A DNA stretch of 64,000 nt, taken from the NCBI GenBank assembly GCA_050950765.1, contig JBMNIF010000005.1, positions 32,001-96,000 of the forward strand, written 5' to 3'. How positions within the stretch are numbered: position 1 is the stretch's first letter; each line of letters opens with the position of its first letter. Source of the stretch: Bdellovibrionota bacterium (GTDB taxonomy: Bacteria > Bdellovibrionota_C > UBA2361 > JAAYZI01). The position numbers and the translations under genes are program-made. This document shows, in pieces, positions 13,249 through 32,373 of this stretch. Under the pieces are notes generated by a model, which worked only from the letters and a program-made list of their open reading frames with translations, did not search any database and had not been told where the DNA came from.

Positions 13249-14278
13249 TTTCTTCTTTTAGAAGCGACTCGATTGCTTCCATAACGGTAGTAGCAGAGAT
13301 TCCATCTATACAAGCATTCGTTCCATTTGGACACTTCATAGAGCCGTGTCTAGCGCACGGCTTACAACTTAACCCTTCTTTTTCAACGATAATAGCTCGA
13401 TTCTTCCATGGACCGAAACCAAAACTTGGCGAAGTAGCACAAAATATAGCAACAGTTGGTATTTTGAAGGCCGATCCCAAGTGCATCGGCATTGAATCAT
13501 TACACACCAACACTGCTGCTTTACTAATCAGATACATAGTATCAGATAAGGAGAGCTTACCCGCTAAATTTACATCTTCATTATTTATACATATCTCTTC
13601 AGCTAACTCTTTATCTTCTGCTCCACCGACAACAAAAACATCAATCCCCTTCTTTCTCAGTTGTTGTAAAACATCTTTAAAGCCATCAGCACTCCAACGT
13701 TTAGTTTTCCAAACGCTACCTGGCGCCAGTACAACCCAACGTTCTTTCCCAAGAATGGCATTTTTTAAGATTTCACTAATATCGTTATCTTTAGGGGGGA
13801 AAAGACGCATTTCAGCAGGCGCCGTCTCCAATTCATCAGGATCAAGTATTATTGATAAATTACGCAAGACATCGTGTTTGTCCATAGGACGTACGCGAGT
13901 TTTGTCATAAAAAATCGGTGAAAACTTTGCATTTGAAAAGCCGATAATTTCAGGGATCTTCGCAAATTTTAACAATAACGCCGTACGGATTGATCGTTGT
14001 AGAGCAAACGCCATATCAAAGTGCTTAGCTCGCAATTCCTTAGCTTTTCTTAATAATCCGAAGAGTCCAGAAGATGAATGACGTTTATCAAAAACGAGTG
14101 CCTCTGATATTAACGGATCTCGAGAAAGAATACTTTTTGCAGCAGGGGTAGTTAAGACGCTTATTTCGGCTTGCGGAAATTTTGATTTTACCGCTGCAAT
14201 AACCGGACTGGATAGGATCACATCCCCTAAAAAACTTGTTTGTACAATTAAGATTTTCATAAGGGCGTAGTATGCCAC
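13241..14278 (-). CDS. waaF: LPS heptosyltransferase II (GT9)
   Basis: MKILIVQTSFLGDVIL, APGSVWKTKRW, CNDSMPMH, CKPC motifs; true start probably the internal Met of MKILIV. Confidence 0.8.
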   Translation of the reverse strand: MAYYALMKILIVQTSFLGDVILSSPVIAAVKSKFPQAEISVLTTPAAKSILSRDPLISEALVFDKRHSSSGLFGLLRKAKELRAKHFDMAFALQRSIRTALLLKFAKIPEIIGFSNAKFSPIFYDKTRVRPMDKHDVLRNLSIILDPDELETAPAEMRLFPPKDNDISEILKNAILGKERWVVLAPGSVWKTKRWSADGFKDVLQQLRKKGIDVFVVGGAEDKELAEEICINNEDVNLAGKLSLSDTMYLISKAAVLVCNDSMPMHLGSAFKIPTVAIFCATSPSFGFGPWKNRAIIVEKEGLSCKPCARHGSMKCPNGTNACIDGISATTVMEAIESLLKEEND

Positions 14279-14410
14279 TATGCTAAAATAAGATGCAAAT
14301 ATAAAGAAAAGAAGAACGGTGTTTTATTGATGCCTGTTATACTTCACCCTCTTTTCCTTTAGATAAATGAACTTTTCGTCGATAAAAGACGGAGGATTTA
14401 GGTTATTGAA

Positions 14411-15382
14411 GTGTCACTATCATGCCAATGGCACTTTATAATCGGTGACAAAAATAATACGTTGCGTTTTACACTTAATATGACAACTGTCAATAAAAAC
14501 ATCGGATATCAAAAAGCGGCTGGTCAAAAAAAACCTTTAGCGCAAAACGCCTATCTTAGGCTAGCGCTTCCTCCTGAAAAAAACATTCACGCAACTACCT
14601 CTAGGATGATAAGAGATCACGGACTGCATATATCTAATTTTGCAGCTTGGGCGATTCAAGATCCGATTTTAGTTATCGAATTACTTCGTCGTGCTAATGC
14701 AATCCGTTTTTCCAGAGATGCAGAGATCTCATCAGTACATACTGCTGTTATTCGTTTAGGTGAGGATAGCGTTAGCGGAATTCTAACTTCTTTAAAAACG
14801 CGTAGACCTTTTAAAGATCAAGAGATGCAAGGCTTGTTTGAAATGTATCGAGATAAGGCGCGTAGGACTTCTATTATCGCAAAATATATGGCGAATTGGT
14901 TGCTAAGTTCTTTTAGCGAAAAGTGCCAAACCGCCGCTGTCCTAAGTACTATGGGAGACATGTTGGCGATTGCTTCTTTAGGGGATGAATATTTAATGTT
15001 GGCAAGGAGTCAAGTTCGAGCACAGATTAATTACCTTTTGAAACGAGACTACTCTTTTGATATTGAAAAAGCAGCACTTAAATATTTGCGGTTAAATGGT
15101 GTGCCGGACATCCTTGTTGATACCTTGAGTCACGATGCGAAACTATCTTCAAAGGAACAAAACACCATGCGCACGATCTGCTTTGCAGCAGAAGAATTAG
15201 TAAATGCTTTTGATGCTCATAAATGGGAAAAGATGGCACCAGGTGAACCCCTCCCATCAAAGAGCTATATTCGTTTGTTGTGTATGGATGCTCGTCAATA
15301 CGCCAAAATATTTTCAGTAGCGACAAAATACCTTTATTCAGTCAGACAAAAAAACGAGCGCTCCGACACCACAAATTCTTAA
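14411..15382 (+). CDS. Stand-alone HDOD-domain protein
   Basis: QDPILVIELLRRAN and ISSVHTAVIRLG HDOD signature; start uncertain. Confidence 0.75.
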   Translation: MSLSCQWHFIIGDKNNTLRFTLNMTTVNKNIGYQKAAGQKKPLAQNAYLRLALPPEKNIHATTSRMIRDHGLHISNFAAWAIQDPILVIELLRRANAIRFSRDAEISSVHTAVIRLGEDSVSGILTSLKTRRPFKDQEMQGLFEMYRDKARRTSIIAKYMANWLLSSFSEKCQTAAVLSTMGDMLAIASLGDEYLMLARSQVRAQINYLLKRDYSFDIEKAALKYLRLNGVPDILVDTLSHDAKLSSKEQNTMRTICFAAEELVNAFDAHKWEKMAPGEPLPSKSYIRLLCMDARQYAKIFSVATKYLYSVRQKNERSDTTNS

Positions 15383-16387
15383 CCTCCGTAGAGATCTAGC
15401 TGACTCGCTTTTTAATTACAGCCCGTACAGTTTTTTAACCCCCGTCAAGATCTAGCTAACTCGTTTTGTAGTTCCAGCCCGCTCGATTGTCCTTAGAGGG
15501 TGCTTTACTGGTGGGTGGCACCAGAAACCACCACTCTCTGCAGTTGCAGCCCGTTCAGCTGTCCCTGAAGGGTGGCACCAAATTTTTAACCTCCGTAGAA
15601 AACTAACCGATTCGCTCTGCAGTTGCAGCCCGTTCTATTGTCTCTGAAGGGTGGCACCAAATTCGCCAAGCCTAAGCTTATGCTAACATCTTGATATTAT
15701 TAGCAGCCCACCTTAACTAAAAGAAGGGTGGCACCAGAAACGACCACTCTCTGCAGTTGCAGCCCGTTCTATTGTCTCTGAAGGGTGGCACCAAATTTTT
15801 AACCTCCGTAAAGATCTAACCGATTCACTCTGCAGTTGCAGCCCGTTCTATTGTCCCTGAAGGGTGGCACTAAATTCGCCAAGCCTAAGTTTTTGTTAAC
15901 ATCTTGATATTATTAGTTATTGTAATTTTAGCGTCTTTTTTACTGGTGGGTGGCACCAGTGCTGCAGCCCGCCGTTCTGCCAAAAATGAAGGGTGGCACC
16001 AAATTTTTAACCCCCGTCCAGATCTAGCTAGTTTTGTCTTCAGTTGCAGCCCGTTCTGCGATCCCTAAAGGGTGGCACCAAATTTTTAACCCCATCAAGA
16101 TCTAGCCGATCTGTTTTGTCATTGCAGCCCGTCCAATCGGCACTGAAGGGTGGCACCAAAACCACCAAACCTTAAGCTTTTACTAACATCTTGATATTAT
16201 TAACTATCGTAATTTTAAAGTTTTTAGCACTGGTGGGTGGCACCAGATCCAAGCCCAGCCAAGTCAGAAGATCCCGTCTTACTGAAGGGTGGCACCAAAT
16301 TTTTGACCTCCGTAGAAAACTAACCGATTCGCTCTGCAGTTGCAGCCCGTTCAGCTGTCCCTAAAGGGTGGCACCAAATTTTTAACC
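15373..16387 (+). repeat. Mosaic repeat array 5 (GGGTGGCACC-core family, 13 cores)
   Basis: Cores at 15513, 15570, 15649, 15726, 15783, 15862, 15948, 15991, 16070, 16148, 16235, 16287, 16366. Confidence 0.95.
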
Positions 16388-16392
16388 TTAGA

Positions 16393-17373
16393 TTAGTTGA
16401 TTAAGACCCAGACCACTATGAATCCTAGTAAAACCAACAACAAGCCGAATCCGATAGAAAGGATAAGTTTATCTTCCAAAGATGCAAAAGAGTTATTCAG
16501 ATTTTGATGATTAGCGCCTTTCCTTACTCTGGGATAATCAAGTGCAAATGTCTCGTCTCCAAACTCATCTTCCGATGAGAGAACTCCAAAAGTTCCTGAG
16601 CGTTGTAGCTGCGCTGCCGCACGGACTCTCCTTTCACTCTCTTCCTCCTGCTCGGAAGGAACCCACTCTTTTAAATTAGAAGTAACCTCAGTAACAGTAG
16701 AGTGTGGTGTTTGCACCTGATTTATTGTCGGTTCATTAAAGAAGATCGTATAATTCAATAACCTAATACTATCGCAATCTTTCAAAACGGTCAGTTCCGT
16801 TATCTCAGTATCGTTTACCGTTACAGGAAATTCTTTAGCGACACTATACACAACAACATCTTCCCCACGACGCTCAATTACAAGTGACGGCTGTTCAAAG
16901 AGATCCCCCGGTAATTCCATATCTGATGTTGAGCCTCCCAAAACAAGAGCCCTACCATATTCAGGAACTGGAAGCTCTGAAACAAATTGTTCATTTCTCA
17001 AGACAATCAATGTGCGGTGGTTGATGGTAGAAATATCCGTAGCCGTTAGATCATCCCCATCGGGATGCCCCTCCGTTATCCTAAAATCCAGATTTGCCAA
17101 CTGCAAATCATCTCCAGATCGTAAAAGATGCCACTGATTAACAGGAAGCTTGACACCATTGATCCAAGAGCCGTTAGTACTTCCCACGTCCTGACATAAC
17201 CAAACTGAACCACAACTTAAGAGGATGGCGTGCTGCCTTGAAATAGCAGAGTTCGGGATTACGATATCAGCATCTTCAGCCTCTCTACCAATCGTATAAT
17301 AAGCGCCTGCAAGTTGCGCGATAGGGGTGCTCACCCCTTCCTCAATCTGTTCTAATATAAACGTACTATTCAT
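16393..17373 (-). CDS. FHA-domain protein with C-terminal membrane anchor
   Basis: IGR...ISRQHA...DVGSTNGSWING canonical FHA; a second degenerate FHA-like region; hydrophobic C-terminus. Confidence 0.85.
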   Translation of the reverse strand: MNSTFILEQIEEGVSTPIAQLAGAYYTIGREAEDADIVIPNSAISRQHAILLSCGSVWLCQDVGSTNGSWINGVKLPVNQWHLLRSGDDLQLANLDFRITEGHPDGDDLTATDISTINHRTLIVLRNEQFVSELPVPEYGRALVLGGSTSDMELPGDLFEQPSLVIERRGEDVVVYSVAKEFPVTVNDTEITELTVLKDCDSIRLLNYTIFFNEPTINQVQTPHSTVTEVTSNLKEWVPSEQEEESERRVRAAAQLQRSGTFGVLSSEDEFGDETFALDYPRVRKGANHQNLNNSFASLEDKLILSIGFGLLLVLLGFIVVWVLIN

Positions 17374-17431
17374 AGTCTATCAATTATAAATACAAATAGG
17401 CGAACTTGTACATCACCGATTTTTAAAGTGA

Positions 17432-17710
17432 GATATCCCTAAAAATTATGCCGAAGAAGGACGCTAAGCGGTTTAGGTTAGGCATCTTCCCTTAAGTAGT
17501 ACACCCCTTCCCTGACTGCGCACTTGAGATGCTCCAAAAATTCCGTCTAAATAACGATTTATAAAAATGAATTATTCAAATAATTTAAGCAATACCCTCC
17601 TGCTCGTTGGTTAATTTATTCTATTGTGTTTCTCTTTTTACGGGATATCCTTAAAAATTATGCTGAAGAAGGACGCTAGGCGGTTTAGGTTAGGCATCTT
17701 CCCTTAAGTA
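17432..17710. repeat. Two 67-bp direct repeats (17432-17498, 17644-17710)
   Basis: GATATCCYTAAAAATTATGCYGAAGAAGGACGCTARGCGGTTTAGGTTAGGCATCTTCCCTTAAGTA twice, 3 mismatches. Confidence 0.9.
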
Positions 17711-17843
17711 ATGCCGTAAGCCTTTGTTGTGTAATTATAAGTAATAAGGAGGGATCATAAGGATAAAAAGTAAAGTAATGTATTTAAATTAGGCAGTCTA
17801 CATCAAACAACCGATCCTATTCTTTGAAATTGTGAGAGATATT

Positions 17844-18128
17844 TTAAACTTTTTTTGTGTGTTTTTTTTGCAGATTTTTTTCAATATTATCCAGTAGCAC
17901 AGCTACGGCGTGGAATAGCTCTTCAGGTATTTCAGAATCAACCTCTAATTCACTCATAGTTCTTGACAGATCTGGATCGTGCACTACAGGGATATCATAG
18001 CGCATAGCTATTTTTACAATATCGTCCGCCTGAAAAGTCTCTCCTTTAACAGTAACTGCGGGCGCAAAAGCCCCCTCTTCATAACTTAAACCCACCGCAC
18101 GGCTATATCTGAACTTATTGTTAGCCAT
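17844..18128 (-). CDS. FlhB/SctU C-terminal (CC) fragment as a separate gene (FlhX-like)
   Basis: RAVGLSY..APAVTVKG..ADDIVKIA..DIPV..LSR..EIPEELFHAVAVLL matches the post-NPTH part of FlhB/SctU. Confidence 0.88.
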   Translation of the reverse strand: MANNKFRYSRAVGLSYEEGAFAPAVTVKGETFQADDIVKIAMRYDIPVVHDPDLSRTMSELEVDSEIPEELFHAVAVLLDNIEKNLQKKHTKKV

Positions 18129-21100
18129 TACATTTTATCCTTTCAGAGAGAGGACGACGAGCTTTCAACCTCCTTCTAGCATCACCTATCTTTTTTACTG
18201 TTTTCCCATGTGCGATAAGAACGTTTTCAGGTTTATCACTTTTCCCCTGAACATCATTTAACTCAAAGATATGATTTTTAAGTGCATCAATAGCCCAATC
18301 ATCAAGGGGAACTCTAAAAACTCGCATATCAGCTACATAACGTAAAAGCCCACTCCACTTTTCTGGCTCTTTAGAAACCCCAAATAACAAAATATCTGGA
18401 TAGCTAGATCGTAGCTGTTTTACAAAACTAACAATACGCTCCCCAACATCTTCAATATTTATGAGTAGTATCTTAGGCACAGCAACACTACTCATCTGAT
18501 TAAGGAGATCTTCTATCTGGGTAAAATGAACTATCTCTAGATCATTGCCTTCCAGTAATGATGAGATCCTCCTCTTAATATTACCCTTTTGATCCAAGAC
18601 AAAGATCTGCTGAGCGTGTGTCGCCTCATCTAGAGCAGCCATTGTCATTTTTTTCACAGGAAGAAAGATGCTTAAAACAGTTCCGAGACCTTTTGTGCTT
18701 TTTACCGTTAAAACACCTTGATGTTGCCTTACGATAGAATACGCCAATGCTAAACCTAATCCTGTCGGGCGTACTCCAAGACCGGTATTCAGATCGATAT
18801 CTTTTGTCGTGAAGAAAGGCTCAAAGCAACGCGAGAGCGTCTCCTGATCCATACCCTTACCATTATCAATCACACTGATGCAGATATACTTCCCTACCTT
18901 TATAGCAGGATCAACCTCTCCGTCTTTCAGATCTAATACGCGTAATTTTATTTTAACTAACGGATTCTGTTTCCCTCTAACAGCCTCATAAGCATTAGTG
19001 ATTAAACTTAAGATAACTTGTTGCATCTGTCCGTAATCTGCTTCGATCTGAAGATAATCTAGCGCCTGTTGACTCTCTACTTTTATATTAAGGTTATGAA
19101 TCGAGGTAAAAAACTTAAGCGAATCATTAATCAGCGCTAAAACAGAGAGGTTCTTAACATCTATGGAGACCTGCTGAGTTAAGATCATCATCTGTCGAAT
19201 TAAACCTGCTGCTCTTTCAGTAGCTTTTGAGATATCTTTAGCGGCTTTTCCGACAGGCGAATCTTCACTACTTTGCATCTCGATTAAGGCAGCTTGCCCC
19301 ATCACAGCTTGTAGTAAATTATTAAAGTTGTGTGCCACGCCCGATGCTAACAACCCTATGCTGCGCATTTTTTTAGATTCAGCTCTCCTATTTTTAAGTT
19401 GGCTTGCTAAAATAGCGTTCGCTACTTCGGCAACTATGCTTTGCAACAGAGCCATATTTAAACGTGTGAAGGTGTTGATGGGTAGATCAGGTTCGATAGC
19501 AAAAATCCCGATGACCTTCCCACCAAAAATAAGAGGAACTAACAACAAGGAATCTATCTGAAGTCGTTTAAAAATACGTAACAATCCGAGGTGCTTTATA
19601 TCTGCAGCACTATTTAAGATCGTACTACTTTTATTGTTGATAATCTGATTTAAAATAGAGTTGTTGGAATGTTCTAAATTGATACTTAAATTAAGGAGTT
19701 TTTCTTTTAATCCTTCTCCAATTCCTCCTTGCCCTGTTAAGGTAGTTCCAGATTCATCCAAAATTCCGAGCCAAACTCTTTTGCAATTCAACTCTTCCTT
19801 CAGAAGAGAGAAGGAATATTTAGCGATCTGCCGAATCGTTGTTAGTTCCGAAAGGGCGCGCGCTACACGGTATAAAGTAGCTATCATTTTAATCTGTCGC
19901 TTCTCTGCTAAAACGCTCTCGGCTTTATGTATAGCAATAGCGGTTTGACTTGCCGCAGCAGAGATAAACTTCAAATTAAAGTTTGAAAAAGCATCTTCCT
20001 TTTTATGAAAGATAATAAGTGCTCCTAATACAAAAGGAGCTTTGTTTTTCTTATTTACAAAAGATAGCGGGATTACAACAGCAGACCTTAACCCGTCCAT
20101 AGCAGCTAAGCTAATATCACGGTGTGTAGTGTTGTTAATATCTTTAATATATAGCCCTCGATTTTCTGTTACCGTCTTTTTAACTAAACTGTCACTATTT
20201 AAGTATCTTGAGCTCTCTGATAAATATTTTTGAGACAAGCCGTGCGTTGTTAAAAGTTCCACAGAATTTAAATTATTATTATGCAATGCAATATATCCAG
20301 CAGCTGCGCCAAGTGTAGAGATAATAGTTTTTAAGCTGCTATTTGCAATCTGTTCAGGATCACTTTGCGCTTGCACAGATAAGGAGATATTATAAAGAGC
20401 TTCGACATTTTTCCTTTGGAGATATGATTTTTTTTCAGCGTTGTATCTCTCTGTAATATCAAATCCGAGGATCTCCCACCCTACAAGTTCTTTTTCATTA
20501 TTGTATAAAGGGATAATAGTAACGGCTGCACAACTGATATTATTCGTTTGTTGATTAAGTATTTTAATTTCGCAGTTTAGTTTTTGAGGTGTTTTCATTC
20601 TACCAAAAGCGCGTTTGATAGTACGTAGATCTGACGGATCTATAAAACTATCCCAAACTTCAGAATTATTAAGTAAAAATAGTGATGAAACTCCGAAGGT
20701 AGCTTCTGCGTCACCATAAACATTGGTTATATTCCAATTTTGATCCGTGCGAATCATAAGGAGGTCGCCTGTATTACGCACAGCATCCAATACCTTCCAA
20801 GAAGAGGTAGAAGCGTCTTGCGAAATCTCTTCAGTAGTGCGATACCCTTCGAGATTCTTATACTTTTCCTCACAGAATAAAGCACAGAACTCACTCATCT
20901 GTTCCAAGAAAAGTCTTTCATTCTTTGACCAAGTACAATGTTTTTTAAAAAATCGGCACTCTATCCAACCTGCCAATCGATTTTTATGATAGATCGGAAC
21001 TATCCCTAAAGAACGTGTGCCATACTGCATCTCTAAAGCAACGAATTCGACGGGGAGATTTGAACCTTGTAAGACCTTACAAAAACTCGGCACTTCAACG

Positions 21101-21345
21101 TGCATATTGTGAAAAAGGAATTCATTATTAACTATATTTAATAACGTTTTCTGTTGATTCGGTCTTGAAGAATAAGCAAGGACATCTCCGTTAGCTGCTG
21201 CATAATTGATATAAATCAGATCTGCTTGAAGAACTCTCATGATCTCTTTTGCGATATGTTGCAGCACAAGATCAGGGCTATCTAAATCTGTCAAAGAAAC
21301 CCTAATTTGATGTAGTAGTTGCGTTGTAGCATTTTCGAAGCTCAT
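18121..21345 (-). CDS. Multi-sensor (GAF/PAS/GAF/GAF) histidine kinase with degenerate receiver-like C-terminus
   Basis: H-box GVAHNFNNLL, N-box LITNAYEA, DNGKGM, FEPFFTTK, GLGLA; PAC-like GFDITER. Confidence 0.9.
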   Translation of the reverse strand: MSFENATTQLLHQIRVSLTDLDSPDLVLQHIAKEIMRVLQADLIYINYAAANGDVLAYSSRPNQQKTLLNIVNNEFLFHNMHVEVPSFCKVLQGSNLPVEFVALEMQYGTRSLGIVPIYHKNRLAGWIECRFFKKHCTWSKNERLFLEQMSEFCALFCEEKYKNLEGYRTTEEISQDASTSSWKVLDAVRNTGDLLMIRTDQNWNITNVYGDAEATFGVSSLFLLNNSEVWDSFIDPSDLRTIKRAFGRMKTPQKLNCEIKILNQQTNNISCAAVTIIPLYNNEKELVGWEILGFDITERYNAEKKSYLQRKNVEALYNISLSVQAQSDPEQIANSSLKTIISTLGAAAGYIALHNNNLNSVELLTTHGLSQKYLSESSRYLNSDSLVKKTVTENRGLYIKDINNTTHRDISLAAMDGLRSAVVIPLSFVNKKNKAPFVLGALIIFHKKEDAFSNFNLKFISAAASQTAIAIHKAESVLAEKRQIKMIATLYRVARALSELTTIRQIAKYSFSLLKEELNCKRVWLGILDESGTTLTGQGGIGEGLKEKLLNLSINLEHSNNSILNQIINNKSSTILNSAADIKHLGLLRIFKRLQIDSLLLVPLIFGGKVIGIFAIEPDLPINTFTRLNMALLQSIVAEVANAILASQLKNRRAESKKMRSIGLLASGVAHNFNNLLQAVMGQAALIEMQSSEDSPVGKAAKDISKATERAAGLIRQMMILTQQVSIDVKNLSVLALINDSLKFFTSIHNLNIKVESQQALDYLQIEADYGQMQQVILSLITNAYEAVRGKQNPLVKIKLRVLDLKDGEVDPAIKVGKYICISVIDNGKGMDQETLSRCFEPFFTTKDIDLNTGLGVRPTGLGLALAYSIVRQHQGVLTVKSTKGLGTVLSIFLPVKKMTMAALDEATHAQQIFVLDQKGNIKRRISSLLEGNDLEIVHFTQIEDLLNQMSSVAVPKILLINIEDVGERIVSFVKQLRSSYPDILLFGVSKEPEKWSGLLRYVADMRVFRVPLDDWAIDALKNHIFELNDVQGKSDKPENVLIAHGKTVKKIGDARRRLKARRPLSERIKCNG

Positions 21346-22139
21346 ATTTTTTCCCTTTTGCTACAATCTTCAACTACAATAACTTTAGATCTCCGCACTC
21401 TGGCTATAATCTCTTCTCTTAGTAACGCTTGATGTGCTGCCATACGTGCAGATTTCATCTGAGGATCACCTTCAGATTCTTTATTTTCATCTTTAAGCTC
21501 TTCAAGTGACATCATCGTTTCTTTCTTGAATTTCTTACGATTCAAAAAAACTTCTAACCCTGCACAGACAAGAAGGATTGATGCACTTAAAAGAAAGAGC
21601 TTTCTTATGACCGCATCAAAAAAAAGAAGCTTATCTTGTTGCGAAAGTGTTAGTATCAGAGGGATACGCAAAATAAGTTCACGAATGCCGAAAAAAAGAA
21701 AGGCTAAAACACAGAAAACAATAAACAACTTTATTAAATTTTGTTTGATGCCTCCAAAGATCTTTTTAGATCCGTTTGCAAGAGAAACTCGTGAGAGCTG
21801 CGCTGCAAGTGGTTTTGACTCAAAACTGATGCCACCAATTTGCACACCATCACTGATTGTAGCCAAAACAGCAGCTAACACTAAACAACTCCCTACACCT
21901 TTAACACCAACAGAAAACGCAAAACCTAGCGCCTCCTTAATATGAGAATATCCTCCGAGTAAAGCGTATTCTAACACCATTTTAAAATCTATCCAAATCT
22001 CTCCCAGTCCGTAATATATTGAAATTAAAAGGGATATTACAACGATACTTTGCGTAAAAAGAGGAGATTTCGGATTTTGACCATCTTCACGAGCTTTTTT
22101 TAGTTTTTTACGGCTAGCAGCAAAACGTTTTTCCGACAT
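21342..22139 (-). CDS. flhB: FlhB/SctU export-gate switch protein, N-terminal part only (no NPTH, no CC domain)
   Basis: EKRFAASRKKLKKAREDGQNPKS, four TMs, MMSLEELKDENKESEGDPQMK; ends VIVVEDCSKREKI; ATG at 22139 has an AAGGAG RBS. Confidence 0.88.
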   Translation of the reverse strand: MSEKRFAASRKKLKKAREDGQNPKSPLFTQSIVVISLLISIYYGLGEIWIDFKMVLEYALLGGYSHIKEALGFAFSVGVKGVGSCLVLAAVLATISDGVQIGGISFESKPLAAQLSRVSLANGSKKIFGGIKQNLIKLFIVFCVLAFLFFGIRELILRIPLILTLSQQDKLLFFDAVIRKLFLLSASILLVCAGLEVFLNRKKFKKETMMSLEELKDENKESEGDPQMKSARMAAHQALLREEIIARVRRSKVIVVEDCSKREKI

Positions 22140-22143
22140 TTTT

Positions 22144-22884
22144 TTACTCCTTGATAAGTATAGAAAACGGTTGAGCCGCTGCCTGAATACCTTCTTGGAG
22201 GTTCCAATTTTCAAAAAGTAAAATTAGTAGAGTAAATAGAGCAATTGATTTTATTAAGAATCCTTCCTGAGAGAGATTAAAGGTAGGTAGGATTTTACCA
22301 ATGATAGCGAATCCCCAATCACAAACGAGAAAGAGCACTCCAAAGGGAAGATAGATCAGAAAGCAATTATTAAGGTAGACTATAATATCATGCAGCAGTT
22401 GGGGTGAATATTGTAAAAAATCGGCAAATCCAATTTTTCCTGGAGCATATATCGATACAGTGCTGATAAAGAAGATTAAGAGATTATCACCTACACCACC
22501 TATTAAAAAAAGTGTTATCAAGAGATTCCGCGCATAGACACTTAGGATCGATCTTTGCGTATTGGATAGAGGATCGTAGATCGCTGCCATCTGTTGTCCA
22601 CGTCCTGTATCCAGTAGTTCAGTTAAAAATGTAGCTACCTCGATGGAAAGCATTACAGGTAACGCCATTATCGAACCGAGTACAACTTCCAAGAAAACAT
22701 TTAAGGCAGAGAGGTCTCCTATCACCTCATTACTATTAAAAACAGGTATTGAAAGAAGTGTTAAAAACAACGCCAAAGTGCTTTTTTTAACGATACCACC
22801 TACGCCGCTTCCCAACGGCAAAAATGCAGCTAGAGCAGAGGCTCGCATGAATAGTAACGCTAAAAAATGAAAAGACGGGATCAC
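22144..22884 (-). CDS. fliR: Type III export gate FliR/SctT
   Basis: Hydrophobic; LLDTGRGQQMAAIYDP motif; position in a P-Q-R-B cluster. Confidence 0.85.
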   Translation of the reverse strand: MIPSFHFLALLFMRASALAAFLPLGSGVGGIVKKSTLALFLTLLSIPVFNSNEVIGDLSALNVFLEVVLGSIMALPVMLSIEVATFLTELLDTGRGQQMAAIYDPLSNTQRSILSVYARNLLITLFLIGGVGDNLLIFFISTVSIYAPGKIGFADFLQYSPQLLHDIIVYLNNCFLIYLPFGVLFLVCDWGFAIIGKILPTFNLSQEGFLIKSIALFTLLILLFENWNLQEGIQAAAQPFSILIKE

Positions 22885-23147
22885 GACATCTTCCCTAAAA
22901 AAGCTAGCCCCTGCAAACTCTCTTCAATAAAACGCAAAAGTATACCGGAAAATATTTCAGATCCGAGCCAAAGGATCAGAGAGAGTGTCAGAAATTTAAC
23001 AACATAACTGATCGATTGCTCCTGAATCTGAGTTAATGCCTGTAAAATGGCAACCAACAAACCTGAAATGCAGCAGATTAGTAGTGGAACTAAGGAGCAG
23101 ATAATAATTATTAGGAAACTCTCTTTTATAAATCCATCTAAAAACAT
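22881..23147 (-). CDS. fliQ: Type III export gate FliQ/SctS
   Basis: GLLVAILQALTQIQEQSISYVVK signature. Confidence 0.93.
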   Translation of the reverse strand: MFLDGFIKESFLIIIICSLVPLLICCISGLLVAILQALTQIQEQSISYVVKFLTLSLILWLGSEIFSGILLRFIEESLQGLAFLGKMS

Positions 23148-23160
23148 TTTTACGCACTCC

Positions 23161-23811
23161 TTAAAGATTATAAGAGACGATCAAGCTGCGACTTAACAAC
23201 AACCAGCCATCAGAAATTACAAAGAAAAGAAGTTTCAGCGGAAGTGAGATCATGGCGGGACTAAGCATATACATCCCCATCCCCGCCAAGATATTTGACA
23301 CAATTAAGTCAATCACCAAGAAGGGTAATAACAGTATAAATCCCATCGCAAACGCCTCTTTCAATTCAGTCAAGAGGAAGGCAGGGATTAAGACCCAAGC
23401 AGTGATCTGATCTTCAGAGCCTTCTTTAAGTGTGGCGGCTTGTAGTGTTGCAAGCTCATGTTCCCCCGCATGTTGCTGCATAAACTCACGCCACGGTTCA
23501 AAAAGTGGTTGAAGTTTTTTTAAGGTGCTCAAATTTGGTGCAAGTTCTGTTTTTGATTGAGAGATGAGGTCTACTCCTTGTAAGCTTTTATCAATGGTCG
23601 AACCCATAATAAGGAGCGTTAACGCCAGAGAAAGTGCCATCACAACCAAATTACTCGGTGCATGTTGAGTACCGAGTCCATTCCGCAACATCCCTAAGAC
23701 AATGCTGATCTTCAGATAAGATGTGCAGATACCGATCGCTATCGGAATTAAAGCAAACGCCAGTGCAGTAATAACTAACCAATACGGATGAAGAGATGTT
23801 ATTTGATTCAT
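23161..23811 (-). CDS. fliP: Type III export gate FliP/SctR
   Basis: TSYLKISIVL, LIPAFLLTELKEAF, LLPFLVIDL, GMYMLSP, PLKLLFFVISDGW; no obvious cleavable signal peptide (SctR-like). Confidence 0.95.
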   Translation of the reverse strand: MNQITSLHPYWLVITALAFALIPIAIGICTSYLKISIVLGMLRNGLGTQHAPSNLVVMALSLALTLLIMGSTIDKSLQGVDLISQSKTELAPNLSTLKKLQPLFEPWREFMQQHAGEHELATLQAATLKEGSEDQITAWVLIPAFLLTELKEAFAMGFILLLPFLVIDLIVSNILAGMGMYMLSPAMISLPLKLLFFVISDGWLLLSRSLIVSYNL

Positions 23812-23823
23812 TATTACTCCCGA

Positions 23824-24072
23824 TTATTTATCCTTTAAAAGTTGCGTTTGATTGTTGTTAATACTTAAGAGGAGTTTTTCTCCCTCGTATTCAACAACAA
23901 GTAATTTAGTTGAAGAGCTACATTGCAGAGCATCTAAGATTTTTAGTAGCCGTTTACCATCACCTCCCTTAATTCCGTTTTTATAATATTTAACTATAAA
24001 AAGGAGAGCGCCTAAGAAGAGACAAAAAAAAGATAGCTGCACAGCTAAGTTAATCACCTTACTTCCTCCCAT
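23824..24072 (-). CDS. FliO-like small membrane protein
   Basis: One TM then LKILDALQC..KLLVVEYEGEKLLLSI; directly upstream of fliP. Confidence 0.65.
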   Translation of the reverse strand: MGGSKVINLAVQLSFFCLFLGALLFIVKYYKNGIKGGDGKRLLKILDALQCSSSTKLLVVEYEGEKLLLSINNNQTQLLKDK

Positions 24073-24961
24073 AAACTTTTAAACTGTTTAAATTTATTCC
24101 GGCATCCCGCAGAGCTTGAGAGATCTCTCTGGTGTTATTCCACAACGACAAGCGATGTTTTAGGAGTTGAGGAATTATCTCTATCTGAAGTGCTTGTTTA
24201 TTGCCGCTTTTAATATGTACGGCTATCTGTGAGTTATCTGTCGTTAGGTAGGTAATATCTATGTTTTCAACTCCGTTAATCTTCTGCTTCGAAATATAAT
24301 CTATATTTGCTTTTAAGAGTTGTTGATTAGTAAATGTACTTTGTGCTGAAGCTGCGTGGTTATCATTACTTGAAGTTGTAAATGATCCCTGCCCTGTATT
24401 AGAAGAAGGTGTTTCTGAATTAAACGAGACCTGATTTTGATTAAAAACAGAATTACCTAAATCTTCTATGATCTTGTCACAATCTTGAATAACATCAGAA
24501 CCTAGTTCAGATTCTGATAACACTTTACCAAGATCGGCAGAGACACTTTCTTCGCAGGCTGCCTCATCTAAAGACTCTGCCTTTTTGTTTTCTAAGGCAG
24601 TAACTTTTGAAAGTATTTTTTCTTCTCGATCTATAATTTTATTAAGCTTATTAGCGAGTGTTTTATATTCAACTCTCTGCGTGTTAATTGAAAGTTTTAA
24701 TTTATTAAGTATTGTTTCTGTTTTTGAAAGCTTAGTGGTGTAATTCTTGTTTAGAGCGATAATTAAACGTGGATCTTTTTCGGTAGAGTTGATTTTCTTT
24801 AGCGATTCTCTGATCTTATTAAATCCAAGACGAGTACTTTGATACTTCTTTTCAACAGCGACTAGATTTCTCCCACTAATGGCGAGTTTATTTTCATAAA
24901 TGCGGCGCTCAAAGTGTAGTTGTCGCTCCCGTAATTCAAGCCTTTTTGCTTCTAAATCCAT
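24059..24961 (-). CDS. Coiled-coil protein with FliK/SctP-like C-terminal domain
   Basis: Long K/E-rich heptad N-terminus, S/T/N/Q-rich linker, C-terminus ISQALRDAGINLNSLKV resembling hook/needle length-control domains. Confidence 0.45.
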   Translation of the reverse strand: MDLEAKRLELRERQLHFERRIYENKLAISGRNLVAVEKKYQSTRLGFNKIRESLKKINSTEKDPRLIIALNKNYTTKLSKTETILNKLKLSINTQRVEYKTLANKLNKIIDREEKILSKVTALENKKAESLDEAACEESVSADLGKVLSESELGSDVIQDCDKIIEDLGNSVFNQNQVSFNSETPSSNTGQGSFTTSSNDNHAASAQSTFTNQQLLKANIDYISKQKINGVENIDITYLTTDNSQIAVHIKSGNKQALQIEIIPQLLKHRLSLWNNTREISQALRDAGINLNSLKVYGRK

Positions 24962-24984
24962 AACGCCTCCCCTCGCCTAACTTT

Positions 24985-25281
24985 TTATTGTCCGTTTTGA
25001 AGTTTGCGAAAAGTTCCTGAAGCACTTTCAGCAGCTTTTGAGATCAACTCGACTTTTAAGAAATAATTACCTGCTTTAACCTGATACATAAAAAGATCTT
25101 TCGGTGTAAGAGAGCTACCTTTCTCCAACTCCTGATAAACACCTTGTATCTCTTGATAGAAATCTTTTTGAGCGCTCTGCTGCACCTGATTTAAGACTTC
25201 GCCGAACCCTCTCGAACTACCTTTTTGAGAAACAATAATTTCTTTGCTAGGCGATATGTTTTTTATACCCTCTATCTTCAT
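24985..25281 (-). CDS. SctI (YscI/HrpB/EscI)-like inner-rod protein
   Basis: C-terminal LTPKDLFMYQVKAGNYFLKVELISKAAESASGTFRKLQNGQ fits the SctI C-terminal pattern; first gene of the export operon. Confidence 0.6.
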   Translation of the reverse strand: MKIEGIKNISPSKEIIVSQKGSSRGFGEVLNQVQQSAQKDFYQEIQGVYQELEKGSSLTPKDLFMYQVKAGNYFLKVELISKAAESASGTFRKLQNGQ

Positions 25282-25467
25282 AGGAAACTCCGTAATTTAT
25301 ACGTCGTATCCTTTAAATTGAATTGAAACTCACCGCCTAAAGGACACAACATTTAGTGATGTGGTGTCTTTATCGCAAAGAAAGAAGATTTCTTTCCTCT
25401 GAGAGAGGGGATTTTTGCAATCTCTTTAAAAAAGAGGTTTTTTAGAGGAGTGATAAACCAGAATATA

Positions 25468-25878
25468 TTAGTTCTGTTTTTTATTTGCAGCATCAGCGAT
25501 AGCATCTACGGCAGCCGCATTAAAGGCACGTTGCTGACGAATAAAGTCTTTTAGAAGAACTTGTAAAATAGGGAAAAGCATCTTTTTAACACCTACAATT
25601 ACGGGTCCAATCACCTTTCTGTGTGAGGTTATCTCTCTATTTTTTAATGAGACATCCCATAATTGACATAAGCGACGAAGCTTCTCCAGAGTCTTATCAG
25701 ATACATCTAGAGATCCAGAGGTAAGGTGCAAATTCATCTTAGAGATATAACTAACATCTGCTGCGCTATAATCACCGGCTGCGATACGGTTTTGAACTTT
25801 TTCATCAAGAGCGGTAGAAAAAACGGAATCCGACTCACCAGTAATTGTAAACCAATCTGCACCTTGTTGCGTTTTCAT
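25468..25878 (-). CDS. Hypothetical protein
   Basis: Clean ORF with RBS; SHRKVIGPVIVGVKK..FIRQQRAFN segment resembles helical modules of polysaccharide-modifying enzymes. Confidence 0.6.
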   Translation of the reverse strand: MKTQQGADWFTITGESDSVFSTALDEKVQNRIAAGDYSAADVSYISKMNLHLTSGSLDVSDKTLEKLRRLCQLWDVSLKNREITSHRKVIGPVIVGVKKMLFPILQVLLKDFIRQQRAFNAAAVDAIADAANKKQN

Positions 25879-25953
25879 AGATATCCCCTTCTCACTTTAA
25901 AAGGCTCATGCCGTGACAATTTAACCCGATTCTTTAGAAGTGTACAGCTAAAG

Positions 25954-26883
25954 CTAGAACTTATGGCGTTGTAATTCAAGCCAACGCAACTTATAAAAGT
26001 CGTTTCTGGAGGTGATATAACCACTTTCCAAGCCCGCTATGGCCGAAATAATAATTCCAGCTGCATTTAAAATTCGATAACTCGGAGTATAAAACGTTGT
26101 GCCATTGGTAAAGTAAACCTCTCCACGCTTAACGGCGGGAATATCTTCCCAATACGGGAACTCTTCCAATACTTTAAATGATCGGGCTGAATCTTCGACA
26201 TTCATTCCTTCAGGGGCTATTATTATAACATCAGGACGAAATGATAAGATATCAGACCACTCAACCTCATAGTTTCCTCGTCCTGTTGTTTCTGCCTGAC
26301 TAATTGCTGAAGTTAGTCGAATTATATCAGGTATCCATAACGCTGCTAATTTAAGTGGTGCGATACTTGAAAGGATTGTAACCCTTTTATTATGAACTCT
26401 TTCATAAAAGCTACTGGTCCAACACTGGATTTGTGCCTTCACTAAGTTATAAATTTTTATCCCCATTGCAGGTACTGCTAGGTCTTTAGCCAGTTGCTGG
26501 TACATCTGATAGACGCCTTCTAAAGTGCGTGGGTTGTAAACTTTTAATTTAATCCCGTAATTAAAGTCCTCCTGTAAGACCTCTTCCATCTCTCGTCTTT
26601 TTTGTTCTTGGAGATCGTACTTTTTTTCATCAAAGAGCTCTCCACCAACCTTGTCAGGAAATCTGGTTAAAATAATATCAGGCGTAACAGTTTTTATCTC
26701 TGTAAGAAGAACTTCATCATGCGAAAGTGTTACGGGAGTACCCTTTGGATCGCGAGTCACCACACGACACTCTTTCAACTTTTCAGGGTATGTTGAACGG
26801 TGTGAAACTCCTACAATGTCAGCAGTTAAGTCAAAAGAAACCGCCAATTCTGCTAAAAATGGCTCAAGTGCGACAATTTTCAT
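25954..26883 (-). CDS. BtuF-like (cobalamin/Fe-siderophore) substrate-binding protein
   Basis: MKIVALEP, IVGVSH, PDVIIIAP, WEDIPAVKRGEVY helical-backbone receptor motifs; no signal peptide. Confidence 0.75.
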   Translation of the reverse strand: MKIVALEPFLAELAVSFDLTADIVGVSHRSTYPEKLKECRVVTRDPKGTPVTLSHDEVLLTEIKTVTPDIILTRFPDKVGGELFDEKKYDLQEQKRREMEEVLQEDFNYGIKLKVYNPRTLEGVYQMYQQLAKDLAVPAMGIKIYNLVKAQIQCWTSSFYERVHNKRVTILSSIAPLKLAALWIPDIIRLTSAISQAETTGRGNYEVEWSDILSFRPDVIIIAPEGMNVEDSARSFKVLEEFPYWEDIPAVKRGEVYFTNGTTFYTPSYRILNAAGIIISAIAGLESGYITSRNDFYKLRWLELQRHKF

Positions 26884-27109
26884 ATTTAAACCCTTCGATA
26901 CAAGGTCTACTTCTACAAAAGTTTAGATGTAAGATATTATAGAATTGTTTCTCAAAACGAGAAAATATCAATAAAATAAAGATATTATAAATTAGTCAAA
27001 AATACCGCCGCTCCCTTCCTGAATAGGTTAAAACCATTACTAAAAAGTTTTTGTATCTGATTATTCTAACTAAACATCTAACGGGAGTATCTTCTAAAAA
27101 GGCAAGACT

Positions 27110-28012
27110 ATGAGAAAAACACATCTTTATACCATTTGTGTGGCGTTAATACTAAGCGGTGTTATTGCGTGTTCAAGTAATCAAGTTGGATATCTCGGGT
27201 TGATGGACAAAGGTGTTTTACCACTTAGTGCAGAGAACGCCTTCCTTGGTGCAAATATATTTTTAGCTCGAGAGATGGAAAAAGATGATACCTTAATGGC
27301 TTTTTTCCGTTCGCACGGTGCTCCCAGTGCGATTGAGTTAAAAAGCAACACCTTTAAGAGTGACCAGCTAATCCTTTACTATGCGCACGAAGGTTCGTTT
27401 TATAATGGGAACCCTGTTATTGATGAATATAACTCTAGACACTGGATCTTCAGAGGTCCCTATAAGATGCCTTGGTATAAAGCTAAAAAGATGCAGCCTT
27501 TAGTTAGAAATAAATCTCCTGAAGCTGTTTTTTATATTCGTGGAGAATACCAAAGATTTAATAAAGATGGGGTTGAAGATCGCCACATTGTGCAAGTTAT
27601 CTTACCGACACCTGTAAAAACACCGACTCCAAAACCAGTCATAAGAAAGAGACCTAAATGGAGACCACAACGGGCGAGCACTACGGTTGTTAAAGCGACC
27701 AGCACCCCTACCCCTGCGCCTGAATTGAATCCATTAGATTTTCAAAAACTTAACGCAGATCAACGTGCTTTATTGATGGCAAAAGGGTTTGCACCTCGTG
27801 CAGAAAATGGTGATGTTATCCATATAGTCAAACGTGAAGATGAAACTTTGGCAGCTATTGGAAGTTGGTATACAGGTTCATCAGAGAACGCCTCAACTAT
27901 TGCAACTCAGAACGGGCTTTCTCCTGATGCTATCCTTTCGCCTGGAAATCAGATCCGAGTGCCGTTACACCTCCTAAAAAATAATAAGTTTATGCCGCAC
28001 GATTATAAGTAA
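27110..28012 (+). CDS. LysM-domain lipoprotein
   Basis: Lipobox VIAC, P/T-rich linker, C-terminal HIVKREDETLAAIGSWYTG..NGL..LSPGNQIRVP. Confidence 0.8.
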   Translation: MRKTHLYTICVALILSGVIACSSNQVGYLGLMDKGVLPLSAENAFLGANIFLAREMEKDDTLMAFFRSHGAPSAIELKSNTFKSDQLILYYAHEGSFYNGNPVIDEYNSRHWIFRGPYKMPWYKAKKMQPLVRNKSPEAVFYIRGEYQRFNKDGVEDRHIVQVILPTPVKTPTPKPVIRKRPKWRPQRASTTVVKATSTPTPAPELNPLDFQKLNADQRALLMAKGFAPRAENGDVIHIVKREDETLAAIGSWYTGSSENASTIATQNGLSPDAILSPGNQIRVPLHLLKNNKFMPHDYK

Positions 28013-31846: not shown

Positions 31847-32373
31847 CTAACTAAAAGACGCCACCGCCTCCTCTAAATTAGCAGACGCAGCTTCTAATTC
31901 GTGAAAGAGAAGACCCATCTTTTTCCCCCCACCAAGACAGTTTTTTAAAAGCTTCTAGCTAGAGGGAGATATTATAGAGATTCTGTTCTTCGCTTTTAAA
32001 AAACTTCTAACTAAAAGACGCCACCGCCTCCTCTAAATTAGCAGACGCAGCTTCTAATTCGTGAAAGAGAAGACCCATCTTCTCTCCCCCACCAAGACAG
32101 TTTTTTAAAAGCTTCGCTTTTGAAAAGAGTTCTCCCTCTCCACAGTAAATAGAGATCATCATAACCACCTAATGTAGACAATTTTTTTTAACGCTTCGCT
32201 TTTAAAAAACTTCTAACTAAAAGACGCCACTGCCTCCTCTAAATTAGCAGACGCAGCTTCTAATTCGTGAAAGAGAAGACCCATCTTTTCCCCCCACCAA
32301 GACAGTTTTTTAAAAGCTTCTAGCTAGAGGGAGATATTATAGAGACTTTATTTTTCGCTTTTAAAAAACTTCT
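31847..32373 (-). repeat. Three copies of the ABC-F gene 3' end interleaved with the hairpin element
   Basis: 66-bp copies at 31847, 32007, 32213 of 32372-32437; hairpins at 31935, 32095, 32176, 32300. Confidence 0.95.

Follow-up and report, generated by a model that had tools for sequence, protein, structure and literature searches.

Is a type III switch protein that is encoded by two genes, with a sensor kinase gene between them, the remnant of a broken gene or a working design? We addressed this question for a 64,000-nucleotide (nt) stretch of DNA, referred to here as the window, from a Bdellovibrionota bacterium (GTDB lineage Bacteria; Bdellovibrionota_C; UBA2361; JAAYZI01). It covers forward-strand positions 32,001 to 96,000 of contig JBMNIF010000005.1 in assembly GCA_050950765.1. 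In this window the FlhB/SctU gene is divided into an N-terminal gene, sctU-N, and a C-terminal gene, sctU-C, and a sensor histidine kinase gene lies between the two (Table 1). The purpose of SctU/FlhB autocleavage has been debated for two decades, and cleaved SctU halves stay associated. An earlier note on this DNA had placed the split at the autocleavage site and had proposed a permanently pre-cleaved switch whose assembly or activity may be tied to kinase signalling. We give a probability of roughly 80% to the reading in which SctU is pre-cleaved, its halves reassemble non-covalently and the kinase is a co-expressed regulator of the gate.

The position of the break was defined using the Pfam profile PF01312 (335 positions). 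The sctU-N product matched profile positions 2–256 (141.2 bits against a cut-off of 24.4) and the sctU-C product matched positions 262–333 (56.4 bits); the five profile positions absent between the halves are those of the NPTH loop. The C-terminus of sctU-N is ...KVIVVEDCSKREKI, followed by the stop codon. The genome also encodes an intact flagellar FlhB (366 amino acids (aa), adjoining FlhA) which reads ...ADVVVTNPTHYAVALKY... at the cleavage site. When aligned to this protein, sctU-N ends ...SKVIVVEDCSKREKI and sctU-C begins MANNKFRYSRAVGLSY..., with sctU-N finishing in KVIVV plus nine residues where the flagellar protein reads VVVT-NPTH. The N-terminal product therefore stops just past the strand that precedes NPTH, and the C-terminal product starts a few residues ahead of the strand that follows it.

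Known structures were divided in the same way by the two products. The sctU-N product aligned to residues 8–268 of the FlhB chain 36hu_K1 (E 1.3e-12) and more generally to full-length PDB chains of FlhB and SpaS (E 1e-12 to 6.5e-9), while its tail (residues 231–282) aligned to the CN chains (chain A) of cleaved FlhB, YscU and SpaS. Residues 11–81 of sctU-C aligned to residues 5–77 of the CC chain of FlhB (3b1s chain B, E 8.5e-8), and sctU-C also aligned to the CC chains of EscU and YscU in the PDB. As judged by these alignments, the products of the two genes differ in extent from those of natural cleavage by no more than about six residues. The earlier note's placement of the split exactly at the autocleavage site is borne out by the alignment to FlhB and to the cleaved FlhB and YscU chains. 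Its reading frames, coordinates and two gene overlaps also hold, and its check for a second, full-length flhB in the genome led to the intact flagellar gene with NPTH.

A sequencing frameshift that hides the NPTH sequence had been named in that note as a way in which the split might prove only apparent. We found no NPTH-like motif in an FlhB context in the six frames of positions 17700–22300, so a frameshift cannot restore a normal gene. The autocleavage motif was likewise missing from the sctU-N tail and the sctU-C head, both in the window copy and in all the aligned relatives. A split intein that rejoins the halves by trans-splicing was also considered and rejected: intein halves would not fit in the N tails (1–17 aa) or the C heads, given how short and variable these are.

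We then asked whether the arrangement is kept in related genomes. For the phylum, 124 genomes were available for comparison, all from one class. The order-level sample consisted of 30 relatives from 21 families of the same order, analysed by a Pfam scan and by comparing the window proteins with the open reading frames (ORFs) of each locus using blastp; the class-level sample consisted of 19 loci from other orders of the same class. In the Pfam scan, nearly all of the 30 relatives had N-only and C-only PF01312 matches on the same contig, and none of the 30 had a full-length PF01312 match other than the flagellar FlhB. The order SctR-S-T, N, kinase, C, of which the earlier note had described the N-kinase-C part for the window, was found in 26 of the 30 order-level loci. 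Three others (G003 and G023 from one family, and G014 from another) lack an intervening kinase, and their N and C genes directly overlap each other; in the remaining one the contig ends after the N gene. At the class level, N-kinase-C was present at 15 of the 19 loci; three of the other four are on contigs that end too early, and the last has N and the kinase with no C within 2.7 kb. Relatives with an intact sctU, whose existence the earlier note had also raised, were not found at this cluster among the 30 order-level and 19 class-level loci.

The C gene was linked to sctU-N at every locus, order-level or class-level, where both halves were found. The sctR, sctS and sctT genes lie directly upstream of sctU-N in the window, an order that is kept in relatives, and a blastp match to the FHA protein was seen downstream of sctU-C at 16 of the 26 order-level and 12 of the 15 class-level loci that carry the kinase. 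In the alignment, each of the 30 N pieces runs 1–17 residues past a V(I/V)(I/V)V strand before it ends. Each of the 30 C pieces has its first residue a few positions ahead of xA(V/I)GLxY, and these pieces typically hold a conserved tyrosine where the canonical proteins have the threonine of NPTH. For every relative examined to be split at the same register is far beyond chance.

As controls we used distant FlhB loci from other phyla, where NP[TES]H was found in the same open frame in 60 out of 68. Eight control loci were followed individually (two Planctomycetota, one Pirellulaceae, one Myxococcota, two ‘Deltaproteobacteria’, one Geobacteraceae and one Solibacteraceae). Seven of these had both halves in one ORF with NPxH, and the eighth, from the Pirellulaceae, looks like a frameshift. 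A homologue search at E 1e-10 or better gave no fused form of at least 465 aa, which is weak evidence; a near-length homologue search gave 22 matches, mostly full-length FlhB of ∼350–385 aa, with five of N-only size (265–276 aa). Since the layout is kept across the whole lineage, it is indicative of a working design rather than a broken gene.

The sequences of the halves also bear on whether they still work together. Conservation along the N alignment is highest in the linker and strand beta1, with the consensus MS..ELRRE.KE.EGDP..K..R..LH..LL......RVR.SKVIVV, a pattern that is sensible only if the N piece is still pairing with a C domain. The ratio of non-synonymous to synonymous substitution rates (dN/dS) was 0.22–0.28 for N and 0.19–0.20 for C in the two pairs with a calculable dS; these values are rough, as dS exceeds 1 in the pairs that are not saturated and seven of the 11 pairs are saturated and give no value, and this counts against leaning heavily on them. 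Taken with the gene orders, the alignments indicate that the split arrangement is ancient, class-wide and under purifying selection.

We suggest that sctU-N would supply the membrane domain, linker and strand beta1, and that sctU-C would supply the rest of the cytoplasmic fold. The two polypeptides would rejoin non-covalently by strand complementation, in the manner of the cleaved halves of FlhB, YscU, EscU and SpaS. Fission may have been tolerated because the mature protein consists of two chains anyway; the self-cleaving motif would have become unnecessary and then been lost.

The protein encoded between the halves had a Pfam match to HATPase_c (E 3.7e-17), matches to GAF and PAS, and a HisKA match below the cut-off (E 6e-4). 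Among the 26 order-level intervening proteins, HATPase_c was matched in all and GAF in 24, and most also had PAS and HisKA; in two short kinases from one family (579 and 551 aa) HATPase_c alone was matched. Six residues do not vary across 42 orthologues: the phospho-accepting H672 (within GVAHNFNNLLQ), N675, N676 and, in the G1 box, D827, G829 and G831. N784 and the G2 glycines G860, G862 and G864 are conserved in at least 90%. On these residues, the kinases look active. A further 133–204 residues follow the ATPase domain in 21 of the 26 order-level kinases. A profile of the C-terminal 178 aa matched receiver-domain PDB entries (best E 3.8e-10), so that most of the order-level copies are probably hybrid kinases.

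The three genes are also closely packed. In the window, the ATGA at 21342–21345 is common to the sctU-N stop codon (TGA) and the kinase start codon, and ATGGCTAA at 18121–18128 is common to the kinase stop and the sctU-C start. Across loci, the gap between N and the kinase was 35 nt or less, or was replaced by an overlap, at 26 of 34 loci, and the gap between the kinase and C was 35 nt or less at 31 of 34. As the genes are co-oriented and mostly overlap or lie no more than 35 nt apart, the three proteins are probably made together. Under the reading that we prefer, the soluble kinase may serve the secretion system as its own dedicated regulator, reading a cytoplasmic cue and acting via a receiver protein.

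Several observations weigh against this reading, most of them against the part given to the kinase. The receiver-like domain is absent from five of the 26 order-level kinases, and most class-level kinases outside the order end soon after the ATPase domain, as judged by blastp end points. In the window copy, the receiver-like domain (18124–18657, minus strand) has asparagine at the column of the acceptor aspartate and valine at the lysine column; a member of the same family (G001) likewise has asparagine for the acceptor and a replaced lysine, although most other order-level copies keep both residues. No response regulator or Hpt gene was found within the cluster. Promoter-like and terminator-like sites were no more frequent in a scan of positions 15500–27200 than in shuffled sequences, which leaves spacing as the basis of the co-transcription case. 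A kinase orthologue is absent genome-wide from G003, G023 and G014, which keep the split: their best kinase matches (E 1e-23 to 1e-29) cover the kinase core only, compared with E 1e-100 or better for 23 of the 26 order-level orthologues. In another relative (G006; L031:1830-3176), a gene for a 448-aa glutamate dehydrogenase separates the kinase from sctU-C (order N-kinase-glutamate dehydrogenase-C-FHA), so the gap may simply tolerate insertions. Finally, it is from homology that the halves are inferred to come together physically. Prediction of a three-chain complex (sctU-N residues 226–290 and sctU-C, with kinase residues 640–1074 as the scored partner) gave a score of 0.00, a result that counts neither way.

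As the kinase is present in the outgroup orders, its loss from G003, G023 and G014 is the simpler reading of its absence there. The split outlasted this loss in all three without re-fusion, and the kinase is therefore not a structural requirement of the split. Of the interpretation in the earlier note, the permanently pre-cleaved switch stands, given a break at the loop, conserved halves and an intact flagellar FlhB. The tie to kinase signalling fared less well in view of the three genomes without the kinase, the glutamate dehydrogenase insertion and the lack of a regulator gene in the cluster.

The same observations give some weight to the possibility that the kinase is a mere operon passenger, which arrived early in a permissive gap left by the fission of sctU, stayed there by inertia and has a signalling role unrelated to the gate. 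That three of the 29 order-level loci with both halves keep the split and have no kinase orthologue elsewhere in the genome, that another gene has entered the same gap and that no receiver partner is encoded in the cluster would all be expected of a passenger. However, even at sequence identities of 20–35%, 26 of 30 order-level and 15 of 19 class-level loci have the kinase at this very position; its start and stop mostly overlap or abut the sctU halves and its catalytic residues are invariant. A gene with an unrelated function would not usually stay in one place for so long, and we regard the passenger explanation as possible rather than probable.

Less likely still is a kinase that is itself part of the switch, governing the docking of SctU-C on SctU-N, or its release, by direct binding or through a phosphorelay. 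The reduced system may have no needle to measure, in which case a cytoplasmic signal, instead of a ruler, would open or re-programme the gate, and fission at the cleavage loop would have made SctU-C an independently regulated, exchangeable subunit.

The C piece might alternatively have come from elsewhere, with an ancestral SctU losing its C domain and a free FlhX-type paralogue of the FlhB C domain later being recruited alongside it. Free C-only genes do exist in this genome and its relatives. In this genome a 94-aa FlhX-type C domain is encoded on another contig (L111:8786-9551, contig C3, ∼237 kb), where its gene overlaps the end of a 163-aa ORF without a Pfam match; the two genes may be the fliK2-flhX pair described in Pseudomonas. 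FlhX is reported to partly substitute for FlhB-CC in Helicobacter pylori (available part of bioRxiv 10.1101/2021.08.29.457346). The SctU of a second gate in the genome is only 208 aa and has no C domain. However, in a tree of C domains (59 sequences, 90 columns, quick search) the 31 cluster-linked C pieces fall together on one side of a branch (Shimodaira–Hasegawa-like approximate likelihood ratio test (SH-aLRT) 99), while the 11 FlhX-type copies are a clade of their own (SH-aLRT 100) on the side of the flagellar FlhB and the proteins from other phyla. This topology speaks against the recent recruitment of an FlhX copy; the few columns leave room for an ancient capture. The N gene has also kept the linker and beta1, for which there would be no use without a C partner, and we consider recruitment improbable.

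A pseudogene or assembly artefact, in which a frameshift or insertion broke sctU in this assembly, might be suspected from a draft of five contigs and from the apparent frameshift of this kind at the unrelated Pirellulaceae locus, but has next to no likelihood given the same split at the same register in independent assemblies of all 30 order-level relatives and 15 class-level loci, the lack of an NPTH-like motif in any frame, dN/dS below 0.3 where calculable and an intact intervening 3.2-kb ORF with invariant catalytic residues.

By its gene content, the cluster in the window encodes the SctR, SctS, SctT and SctU subunits of a non-flagellar type III export gate. The minus-strand order is a 136-aa protein of unknown function, SctI-like, coiled-coil, FliO-like, sctR, sctS, sctT, sctU-N, kinase, sctU-C and FHA. 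The longest ORF for sctU-N begins at a TTG codon at 22214 and encodes 290 aa. The start is probably the ATG at 22139 (265 aa), because the Atlas database record begins at residue 26 of the longest ORF; with this start, which the coordinates in the earlier note also imply, the overlap of sctU-N with sctT disappears.

Table 1. Positions of the split sctU genes, the kinase gene and the other genes of the cluster within the window
Feature	Position (strand)	Description	Match
sctU-N	21342..22139 (-)	Four-transmembrane domain, linker and strand beta1 of the FlhB/SctU switch	PF01312, E 5.8e-41
Sensor histidine kinase, 1074 aa	18121..21345 (-)	GAF-PAS-GAF-GAF-HisKA-HATPase_c and C-terminal receiver-like domain; predicted cytoplasmic	Pfam
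sctU-C, 94 aa	17844..18128 (-)	Globular part of the switch after NPTH (CC)	PF01312, E 3.7e-15
sctT	22144..22884 (-)	fliR-family export gate subunit	PF01311, E 1.7e-19
sctS	22881..23147 (-)	fliQ-family export gate subunit	PF01313, E 2.4e-16
sctR	23161..23811 (-)	fliP-family export gate subunit	PF00813, E 7.7e-55
FliO-like protein, 82 aa	23824..24072 (-)	Small membrane protein	PF04347, E 2e-4, 21.8 bits against a cut-off of 22 (weak)
Coiled-coil protein, 300 aa	24059..24961 (-)	Candidate SctP/FliK-type length-control protein (T3S4), a lead only	
SctI-like protein, 98 aa	24985..25281 (-)	Candidate inner rod protein	PF17001, E 4.3e-5, 24.3 bits, below the cut-off of 32.4 (weak)
FHA protein, 326 aa	16393..17373 (-)	SctD-type cytoplasmic domain and C-terminal membrane anchor; last gene of the cluster	PF00498, E 3e-19; N-terminus PF16697 (Yop-YscD_cpl), E 2.9e-13, 50.3 bits against a cut-off of 33.2

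The 300-aa coiled-coil protein had no Pfam match. Its nearest named Atlas clusters are of the Flg_hook (FliK), needle-length-determinant (SctP), HpaP and SpaN types, with a score of ∼0.81, where a score is counted as a match only from 0.9. Searching for orthologues of this candidate ruler by tblastn gave two weak matches in 49 loci, too few for a profile. If the ruler reading is true, a ruler-type partner for SctU-C persists. Downstream of the cluster, between the FHA gene and an HDOD gene, positions 15376–16380 are occupied by a non-coding array of diverged direct repeats, with six to seven copies of units of ∼70–100 nt that have the common core GGGTGGCACCA and no Rfam match; an Rfam search of positions 14000–27500 as a whole also gave no match.

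The draft genome (2.64 Mb in five contigs) contains further type III genes. There are three FlhA/SctV genes, one flagellar and two extra, and one of the extra copies is within a sigma factor-SctJ-SctQ-SctV-TPR cluster. The other (700 aa; L108:9813-17493, contig C3, ∼604 kb) comes directly after a set of Tad-like pilus genes (two RcpC/CpaB, a T2SSE ATPase and two T2SSF) and precedes the gene for an 814-aa Ser/Thr protein kinase, as seen in this one genome. A second non-flagellar gate cluster encodes an FHA protein, SctD-like, SctJ, SctQ-like, SctR, SctS and SctT proteins and then the 208-aa SctU (L110:10147-10773, contig C2, ∼261 kb), which stops at profile position 219 without a linker or C domain. 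N-only matches ending at profile positions 194–235 recur in many relatives in the Pfam scan.

With two extra SctV, two SctJ and two SctQ-like genes elsewhere in the genome, the core components SctR/S/T/U/V/J/Q and an FHA-type SctD are all present. No dedicated SctN ATPase was found: the single PF18269 match in the genome is the flagellar FliI (L152:6682-8025, contig C2, ∼281 kb), inside a fliE-fliF-fliH-fliI-fliJ operon. The sole secretin seen within the window, which is the extent of the secretin and needle survey, is of the GspD type and adjoins GspC. The gene content indicates that this lineage has a flagellum and two reduced non-flagellar gates without an ATPase of their own.

We found no description in the literature, supplements aside, of a natural SctU split or of a kinase inside SctU, with FlhX, split secretins and engineered cleavage being what was found; nor did we find a description of these reduced non-flagellar gates. 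The available part of PMC3574062 concerns a split secretin and not a split SctU, that of PMC3459982 makes no mention of Bdellovibrio, and in PMC11656739 the terms type III, T3SS, FlhB, secretion system and histidine kinase do not occur. The lineage can be seen as a natural version of the precleavage experiment, in which a whole class carries a two-gene switch and has discarded NPTH. It offers a clean system for the study of two-part assembly, where exchange, release and separate regulation of the C part become testable. With a sensor kinase retained between the two halves, the type III gate may receive a signalling input of a kind that we have not found described. The reduced gates resemble the contact-dependent killing apparatus of Myxococcus and may represent an undescribed group of type III systems.

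The canonical FlhB/SctU proteins (FlhB, YscU, EscU and SpaS; PF01312) share with the window SctU the four-transmembrane domain, linker, beta1 and CC fold, and the gene position directly after sctR-S-T. Mature canonical SctU, too, consists of two chains held together non-covalently (PDB chains A and B; available part of PMC4620466), and in Yersinia YscU-CC can dissociate from YscU and is then secreted (excerpts of PMC3504009). Unlike the canonical proteins, the window SctU is two genes with no NPTH and a 3.2-kb kinase gene between them, and no covalent precursor is possible. FlhX (HP1575 of H. pylori and PP_4329 of Pseudomonas putida) resembles sctU-C in being a CC-only protein of ∼90–100 aa beside an intact flagellar FlhB, and in known genomes is often in a fliK2-flhX pair, according to the same portion of bioRxiv 10.1101/2021.08.29.457346. 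Unlike FlhX, the window C gene is syntenic with a sctU-N that lacks the C domain and belongs to a distinct clade, the FlhX-type gene of this genome being separate and on another contig.

At the level of the whole system, the closest described relatives appear to be the secretin-less, needle-less ‘Myxo’ non-flagellar type III secretion systems (NF-T3SS) and the T3SS* of Myxococcus xanthus. Like these systems (accessible parts of PMC3459982 and PMC12428579), the one described here is a scattered, reduced non-flagellar system of a bacterium reported as predatory, and no dedicated ATPase was found for it. In M. xanthus, T3SS* works with the Tad-like Kil system in predation (PMC12428579, in part), and the placement of one extra SctV directly behind Tad-like genes is similar to this pairing. 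The likeness is one of gene content and not of a tree. On the side of differences, sctN is reported to be needed for predation in M. xanthus (excerpt of PMC10469934), and the one Myxococcota locus examined has an unsplit SctU with NPxH.

The nearest parallel to the split itself is a laboratory construct. Precleaved or protease-cleaved SpaS of Salmonella works like the wild type (Monjaras Feria et al. 2015; PMC4620466, in its available part), and this work indicates that it is the cleaved state that matters and not the cleavage event. That the cleaved state suffices for competence would here be realised genetically; unlike the engineered SpaS, the split described here arose naturally, is ancient and has a kinase gene inserted in it.

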